The notes beneath the pieces were generated by a model, which worked only from the letters and a program-made list of their open reading frames with translations, did not search any database and was not told the origin of the DNA. A program made the position numbers and the translations under genes. This document shows, one piece after another, positions 11,641 to 11,689 of a DNA stretch of 41,445 nt. Within the stretch, counting starts at the first letter, position 1; each line of letters opens with the position of its first letter. The DNA is taken from the NCBI RefSeq assembly GCF_016903815.1, contig NZ_CP069975.1. One strand, written 5' to 3'. Origin of the DNA: Escherichia coli. Its GTDB lineage: Bacteria; Pseudomonadota; Gammaproteobacteria; Enterobacterales; Enterobacteriaceae.

Positions 11641-11689
11641 CTCGTAGAATCTGGTGTGTTAACCGATTCTACGAGTAGTCATTTGTGAC
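11641..11689 (-). promoter_or_regulatory. Candidate late promoter plus perfect 11-bp inverted repeat spanning the -10 and the pmgC-like RBS
   Basis: Gene strand: GTCACAAATGAC (11689-11678), 6 bp, TAGAAT (11671-11666). Inverted repeat CTCGTAGAATC-N13-GATTCTACGAG at 11641-11675; the arm nearest the gene contains the GAGG RBS 5 nt before ATG 11634. Confidence 0.45.

Follow-up and report, generated by a model that had tools for sequence, protein, structure and literature searches.

The window analysed here, a stretch of 41,445 nt of Escherichia coli DNA (assembly GCF_016903815.1, contig NZ_CP069975.1) whose own numbering is used for all positions, was recognized by sequence comparison as a P1-like phage of the genus Punavirus: over 11000-12300 it is 99.7% identical to Escherichia phage vB_EcoM-Ro157c2YLVW, and from 11000 to ~11690 it shares 97-99.7% identity with P7, P1, SJ46 and RCS47. 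A repeat search locates, between genes that lie on the minus strand, a perfect inverted repeat with arms CTCGTAGAATC (11641-11651) and GATTCTACGAG (11665-11675), which are 11 nt long each, 100% complementary and separated by 13 nt, just as a preliminary description of this DNA had stated. Read on the minus strand, the region runs ...TGA cctgtcac AAATGACTA CTCG TAGAAT C ggttaacacacca GATTCTACGAG G tttca ATG and comprises, from upstream to downstream, the following features.

12221..12895, minus strand: second accessory ORF, 224 aa, with a signal peptide (phrog_3933), co-oriented
11693..12169, minus strand: accessory ORF, 158 aa, with a signal peptide (phrog_3429), co-oriented and directly upstream of LPsit
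11676..11684, minus strand: -22 box of the late promoter LPsit, AAATGACTA, corresponding to the feature '-22 region of LPsit' of the P1 and P7 records
11665..11675, minus strand: 5' arm of the repeat, CTCGTAGAATC in mRNA sense, made up of the 4-nt promoter spacer, the -10 hexamer and a C
11666..11671, minus strand: -10 hexamer TAGAAT of LPsit, inside the 5' arm, a minus_10_signal in the P1 and P7 records
11652..11664, minus strand: 13-nt spacer or loop, CGGTTAACACACCA region, in which GGU/ACC provide three apical pairs with a bulged A
11641..11651, minus strand: 3' arm, GATTCTACGAG, within the 5' UTR of pmgC, its final 3 nt being the GAG of the Shine-Dalgarno sequence
11640..11643, minus strand: Shine-Dalgarno sequence GAGG, read from the sequence, 5 nt (TTTCA) ahead of the ATG
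11068..11634, minus strand: pmgC, 188 aa (phrog_1851), ATG at 11634..11632

The start codon of pmgC, the gene that heads the LPsit late operon pmgC-tub-pmgB-sit..., is set by an N-terminus common to all PmgC homologues. Counted along the 11-nt 5' arm (11675..11665), the -10 hexamer makes up positions 5-10 (11671..11666), so that the earlier placement of one arm over TAGAAT is borne out. The companion statement, that the other arm lies over the GAGG ribosome-binding site (RBS), holds for three of the four bases: GAG is inside the perfect arm and G11640 lies outside it. From the end of the 3' arm, or of the stem, to the ATG there are 6-8 nt, and the AUG itself is outside the helix. The end coordinate given earlier, 11689, takes in the -22 box (11684..11676) as well.

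The proposal that the repeat spans a late promoter is confirmed both by annotation and by motif searching. In the records of P1 (AF234172) and P7 (AF503408) the site in front of pmgC is annotated as LPsit (a name that one P1 paper gives to the R-S-U promoter), and the box at 11684..11676 is the same as the annotated P1 LPsit box and resembles the 9-bp palindrome consensus AAGTNACTT; the 4-nt spacer ctcg followed by TAGAAT fits the TANNNT -10 placement of the P1 late class. Eleven late promoters are annotated in P1, namely LPmat, LPpro, LPlyz, LPdar, LPs, LPsit, LP23, LP26, LPpmgL, LPhot and LPpac, and ten of them share the alignment (A/G)AC AAGTNACTT-N4-TANNNT. A position weight matrix was derived from these ten, LPhot with its longer spacing between box and -10 being omitted; nine of the ten training promoters score 20-27 bits and LPpmgL scores 11.2. 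Scanning the window with this matrix returned only three strong matches, all on the minus strand, the next best match having 14.0 bits.

23025..23004, minus strand: homologue of LP23, 26.7 bits
3124..3103, minus strand: homologue of LPs, 25.7 bits
11687..11666, minus strand: LPsit, 22.8 bits

Promoters of this type need Lpa, together with host SspA, and their activity is limited to late lytic growth. The conserved 9-bp inverted repeat of the P1 late promoters is the Lpa-binding site, CRISPRi roadblocks placed in simA, simB and simC of P1 do not reduce plating, and pmgC, tub, pmgB and sit are essential in P1 (PMC10695390). Non-polar roadblocks in sim, taken together with an essential pmgC, are consistent with a working promoter located downstream of sim. 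The essential PmgC protein serves in head-tail joining or as a tail adaptor (PMC9024508). Judging from promoter geometry, transcription from LPsit would start at ~11660-11658, that is, in the loop and 6-8 nt past the -10. An LPsit transcript is unable to carry the 5' arm, because the -10 sits inside it. A second promoter on the opposite strand was considered and rejected: the other TAGAAT copy lacks an acceptable box at -35 or -22, and a promoter scan was empty there.

The window contains seven perfect repeats with arms of 11 bp or more and loops of 3-20 nt, compared with 0.165 expected per dinucleotide shuffle, 15% of such shuffles holding at least one. As RNA, the 41-nt hairpin pairs through the 11 bp of the arms plus GGU/ACC across a bulged A and has a folding energy of -19.7 kcal/mol, compared with -5.35 ± 2.25 kcal/mol for shuffles (z -6.4, reached by 0/200); in a 141-nt read-through RNA it is present in both the minimum free energy and the centroid structures, and an RNA beginning at ~11659 is without significant structure (z -0.5). 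Energies for opening the RBS were computed on the P1 LPsit sequence, to which the window is identical from a point 2 nt ahead of the -22 box into pmgC. Opening the segment from the Shine-Dalgarno sequence to the AUG costs 17.1 kcal/mol in the RNA started upstream versus 6.1 kcal/mol in the RNA started at LPsit, and the difference of 11.0 kcal/mol ranks first among 104 P1 genes (median 0.77, s.d. 2.6). Against shuffles restricted to the upstream part, the opening cost stands out with a z of 7.7, and none of 400 such shuffles matches it. A search of 11400-12000 against Rfam gave nothing relevant at E ≤ 1.

We also asked of the other late promoters of P1 whether they share this property. A lock on the RBS as a general design of P1 late promoters was rejected, since in folding with upstream shuffles LPsit alone is significant among the 11: nine others are without a lock and LPdar is marginal. 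At LPdar (P1 AF234172, 31183-31230, minus strand) a CCTCCT beginning 3 nt after the -10 faces the AGGAGG Shine-Dalgarno sequence of lydA, which follows at a distance of 8 nt; opening takes 14.7 versus 8.7 kcal/mol, and upstream shuffling gives a z of 2.1 (19/400). LPdar may be a weaker version of a promoter-dependent RBS lock.

A stable hairpin immediately ahead of a gene might simply stop transcription, and an intrinsic (Rho-independent) terminator or attenuator that halts read-through before pmgC could at first sight be seen in the stem followed by GUUUCAAU in the P1 clade. However, just three U follow the stem there and two in a related clade from Salmonella plasmids (GUUGGC / GUUGCC), so that the sequence after the stem, GUUUCAAU or GUUGGCAU, contains no U-tract and the trait is not conserved; the stem is AU-rich with a 13-nt spacer and is not called by a terminator scan, and a terminator would not need its 5' arm on a -10. 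We regard this explanation as very improbable indeed.

To assess conservation, loci were gathered via the PmgC protein or via a degenerate pattern of the coding sequence, neither of which conditions on the arms; a genome-contig scan contributed five loci and a second viral-contig scan one more haplotype. The P1-clade sample, anchored on the pmgC coding sequence alone, comprises 225 occurrences with 62 distinct sequences. Polymorphic positions number 0/22 in the arms, 5/13 in the loop, 2/6 in the spacer between stem and ATG, 4/13 in the -22 region and 60/189 at pmgC codon third positions; the arms differ from loop plus spacer (7/19) with a Fisher p of 0.002 and from the third positions with a p of 0.0007. 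The degenerate pattern yielded no new arm variant in viral contigs, and none was present among the matches listed for metagenome contigs, many of which are chance matches.

How much of this invariance can be credited to pairing has to be weighed with care, because the arms overlap the -10 and the Shine-Dalgarno sequence and part of their conservation thus has other causes. Indeed, the -10 and the Shine-Dalgarno sequence account for 9 of the 22 arm positions, and the repeat might be a by-product of separate constraints on promoter and RBS that has no function of its own. Yet the remaining 13 arm positions are likewise invariant (0/13 polymorphic; p 0.025 against loop plus spacer and 0.011 against third positions) while loop, spacer and third positions vary. 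The promoter spacer and -10 positions 3-5 moreover vary freely among the other P1 late promoters, and for this reason the invariance of the arms exceeds what promoter function alone would explain. A by-product would also not be expected to show an opening-energy z of 7.7 that is unique among late promoters, nor a -10 change that is matched in the UTR (described below), and we consider this explanation very unlikely.

The matched change is found in the Salmonella-plasmid clade (six loci in our collection), whose PmgC proteins are ~75-77% identical and whose sequence at the site is CTCGTAAAATCGG-N8-CCGATTTTACGAG. Here TAAAAT is paired with ATTTTA, that is, a G to A change in the -10 is accompanied by a C to T change in its partner, and this is seen in three haplotypes. 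The stem of this clade has 13 bp, two inner pairs being added, and outer CAAC/GUUG pairs cover the whole GAGG; its loop is different in both sequence and length. In an alignment of 16 haplotypes, 94.7% of cells are paired, versus 29-46% for slid registers; one core pair changes from G:C to A:U in three haplotypes and 10/11 core pairs are invariant. On these sequences the compensatory change counts as one evolutionary event, for which no intermediate state was seen among the haplotypes, and we estimate the chance that two changes within 22 arm positions would be both partnered and complementary as ~1 in 63. Loop haplotypes with two or three substitutions rebuild an apical helix of 3-4 bp, and all hairpin variants fall between -19.3 and -21.4 kcal/mol. 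Because the repeat is conserved and has undergone one compensatory change, it is evidently under selection and no accident.

Selection on the repeat might nonetheless act on DNA. As the preliminary description had already allowed, the dyad could be an operator: a dimeric protein would contact two 11-bp half-sites, one on the -10 and one at ~+10 to +20, and would exert repression or modulation on LPsit only. Such an operator would account for the perfect dyad symmetry across the promoter and for the invariant arms, and the distance between the 11-mers shifts by just 1 bp between the clades (13 versus 12 nt). Folding is of little help in this respect, since it is blind to strand and to RNA versus DNA: the sense fold is more stable in 7/16 haplotypes, and because a perfect repeat folds equally on either strand, folding does not separate an RNA-level from a DNA-level constraint. 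On the other hand, matches to the half-site with at most two mismatches number 9 in the window versus 8.5 expected, and, the half-site not being above chance elsewhere, the regulator would have to serve one of 11 late promoters; we know of no candidate protein for the dyad. Furthermore, a mirrored base change, extra inner and outer pairs and a rebuilt apical helix are predicted by base pairing and not by a fixed protein contact, and even a change of 1 bp in spacing rotates the half-sites relative to each other. We therefore think it unlikely that the repeat is an operator.

Outside these two clades, among more distant homologues of PmgC (50-63% identity), LPsit and the repeat are both absent, and pmgC is preceded there by another structural gene or by a GC-rich hairpin or terminator. 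Among homologues of ~50-60% identity (four loci and similar ones), GC-rich hairpins such as CCCGCC-cttgtg-GGCGGG replace LPsit, and one group of distant homologues has CUCC-GUCC-GGAG over the Shine-Dalgarno sequence. These hairpins may represent a different answer to the same problem of insulation.

The genes upstream of LPsit are not those assumed earlier. The preliminary description had spoken of upstream 'sim-region genes', which has to be corrected: on comparison neither the 158-aa nor the 224-aa ORF is similar to SimC, the two are not Sim homologues, and together they replace simABC of P1, of which they merely occupy the position. Homology between the window and P1 is broken between 11686 and 12729, and the sequence shared among phages has its upstream limit at the -22 box; the Salmonella clade nevertheless carries relatives of the 158-aa ORF in the same place. 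Altogether, the upstream position is occupied by at least seven unrelated, co-oriented ORF cassettes, whose ends are 6-243 nt away from the -22 box: P1 has sim, P7 has upf50.0/50.5, the window has its two signal-peptide ORFs, and there are at least four more. A terminator-like hairpin is present only in sim-type contexts and in one related upstream class, and in the window a terminator scan found no terminator on the minus strand between the 158-aa ORF and the stem.

The stop codon of the 158-aa ORF lies 17 nt before the stem, and wherever the stop is close (window and Salmonella clade) the distance is 17-19 nt. This is outside the footprint of a terminating ribosome and hence too far for that ribosome to melt the stem. 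In sim-type phages the hairpin stands ~150 nt past the stop codon, beyond a separate terminator-like hairpin, and because that hairpin follows simC, a lock would be partly redundant in P1 itself. This geometry also bears on the idea that the hairpin serves the genes upstream of it, as a 3' stabiliser or processing site of the accessory-gene mRNA, with any effect on the RBS being incidental. A stem of about -20 kcal/mol could block 3' exonucleases, and its location 17 nt past the upstream stop codon in the window and the Salmonella clade would suit such a role; however, the hairpin travels with the late operon and is common to at least seven unrelated cassettes, in sim-type phages it is found only far past the stop and after another hairpin, and the stem is short for RNase III. 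A role on behalf of the upstream genes thus appears quite unlikely to us.

Two further signals were seen in this part of the window. Read on the minus strand, AAATTTATTAGAGCATT at ~12965-12981 closely resembles Oc4, a C1 operator in the P1 and P7 annotations; it separates the accessory cassette from the divergent genes c4-icd-ant, and the promoter of the cassette may adjoin this C1 site. On the plus strand, a terminator-like site at 11754-11771, CGTAGCGTAAATGTTGCG followed by ATTTTTTTT, lies inside the 158-aa ORF, which is encoded on the opposite strand.

The reading that we favour, and consider probable, is that the repeat is a translational insulator of the type described for gene e of phage T4, with a hairpin that makes translation of pmgC depend on the promoter from which the RNA originates. 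RNA that comes from upstream and crosses the accessory genes would hold both arms and would immediately form a stem of 14 bp (about -20 kcal/mol) in which most of the Shine-Dalgarno sequence is buried, and with the end of the stem so close before the AUG, 30S subunits would be unable to load. RNA made from Lpa-activated LPsit would begin in the loop, lack the 5' arm and present an open, CA-rich leader of 25 nt. The essential late tail/neck operon would then be translated only from late-promoter RNA and be insulated from transcription of any upstream cassette. Such a mechanism supposes that read-through transcripts exist; on these, translation of pmgC would be blocked, perhaps ~100-fold if the likeness to T4 gene e extends that far, and the untranslated pmgC RNA would then presumably be ended by Rho. 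Those of its predictions that can be computed agree with what was found: (i) a hairpin confined to the upstream-started RNA, (ii) an extreme RBS penalty, (iii) invariant arms around a variable loop, (iv) a compensatory change, and (v) co-oriented upstream genes poor in terminators. The suggestion made in the preliminary description, that the repeat renders translation promoter-specific, is hence supported in part, by anatomy, folding, RBS penalty, conservation and compensatory change, although folding of sense and antisense strands leaves an RNA hairpin and a DNA dyad unseparated.

The arrangement has a well-studied counterpart. In T4, the DNA for the 5' strand of the helix at the RBS of genes e, soc, 49 and I-TevI contains a late promoter; the long transcripts from upstream promoters are not translated, with a 100-fold repression measured for gene e, and the late transcripts are translated (PMC3014915). 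LPsit and pmgC are alike in having the late promoter in the 5' strand and the Shine-Dalgarno sequence in the 3' strand, and the site has the gene e-type layout, three of the four GAGG bases (GAG) lying in one perfect arm and the -10 in the other. There are, however, three differences. Firstly, the T4 late promoters are gp55/gp33-dependent with the sequence TATAAATA, whereas LPsit is of the Lpa/sigma-70 type with a -22 box and a -10. Secondly, the long RNAs of T4 are early or middle lytic transcripts, whereas those of a P1-like temperate phage would come from a variable accessory cassette. Thirdly, repression was measured for gene e, whereas the lock at LPsit is predicted from sequence and folding.

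A second counterpart is the fold-back inhibition in IS10/Tn10, by which transposase translation from external read-through transcripts is reportedly inhibited (Davis, Simons and Kleckner, 1985). As proposed for LPsit, sequence located 5' of the native start of IS10 pairs with the RBS, so that translation is confined to RNA from the native promoter and the element is insulated from outside transcription. IS10 is, however, a transposon with a weak, constitutive native promoter whose -10 is not an arm of a perfect repeat. A description of a hairpin at LPsit was not found in the literature searched, which was covered in part, so that an earlier mention is possible.

Going one step further, it is tempting to speculate, and we do so only tentatively, that the hairpin is a terminator-free insulator which defines a slot where co-oriented accessory cassettes can be exchanged without bringing a terminator along, that read-through RNA is left untranslated and is ended by Rho in pmgC, and that the -10 and the 5' UTR have co-evolved as a result (TAGAAT/ATTCTA to TAAAAT/ATTTTA). 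If translational insulation is indeed the function, the late genes of P1, a phage heavily used as a model and tool, would be controlled at the level of translation as well, and one would understand how P1-like phage-plasmids can afford a hypervariable, co-oriented accessory slot beside an essential tail/neck operon. Constructs in which pmgC-sit genes are driven from upstream promoters should likewise yield no PmgC as long as the 5' arm is in place. LPsit would be a clear natural example of a promoter whose -10 hexamer is constrained by pairing, at the RNA level, with the 5' UTR of its own transcript unit, and the 35-nt module could act as a compact read-through insulator. The layout itself is already known from T4, and its occurrence here, useful for P1 biology and for engineering, is unsurprising in principle.

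The other perfect repeats of the window are found in diverse settings. One of 13 bp at 23088-23116 (CAAGGTGAAATCG tgg CGATTTCACCTTG) precedes the homologue of LP23 and maps to the annotated P1 parS/ParB-box region. A 12-bp repeat (26456-26482; GACTACAGTCAA aag TTGACTGTAGTC) belongs to a window-specific segment, ~25492-27756, which has no match in P1 and occupies the place of the P1 plasmid replication/incA region. Those of 11 bp include one that follows the ant1 stop codon (14557-14582) and two in or at the edge of coding regions, at the tciA/tciB junction (35897-35931, with a 13-nt spacer) and inside kilA (14936-14961). Finally, the 11-bp repeat at 38971-38997, AGAAAAGCCCG atcgc CGGGCTTTTCT, is located between the convergent homologues of dbn and gene 5 and looks like a bidirectional terminator.
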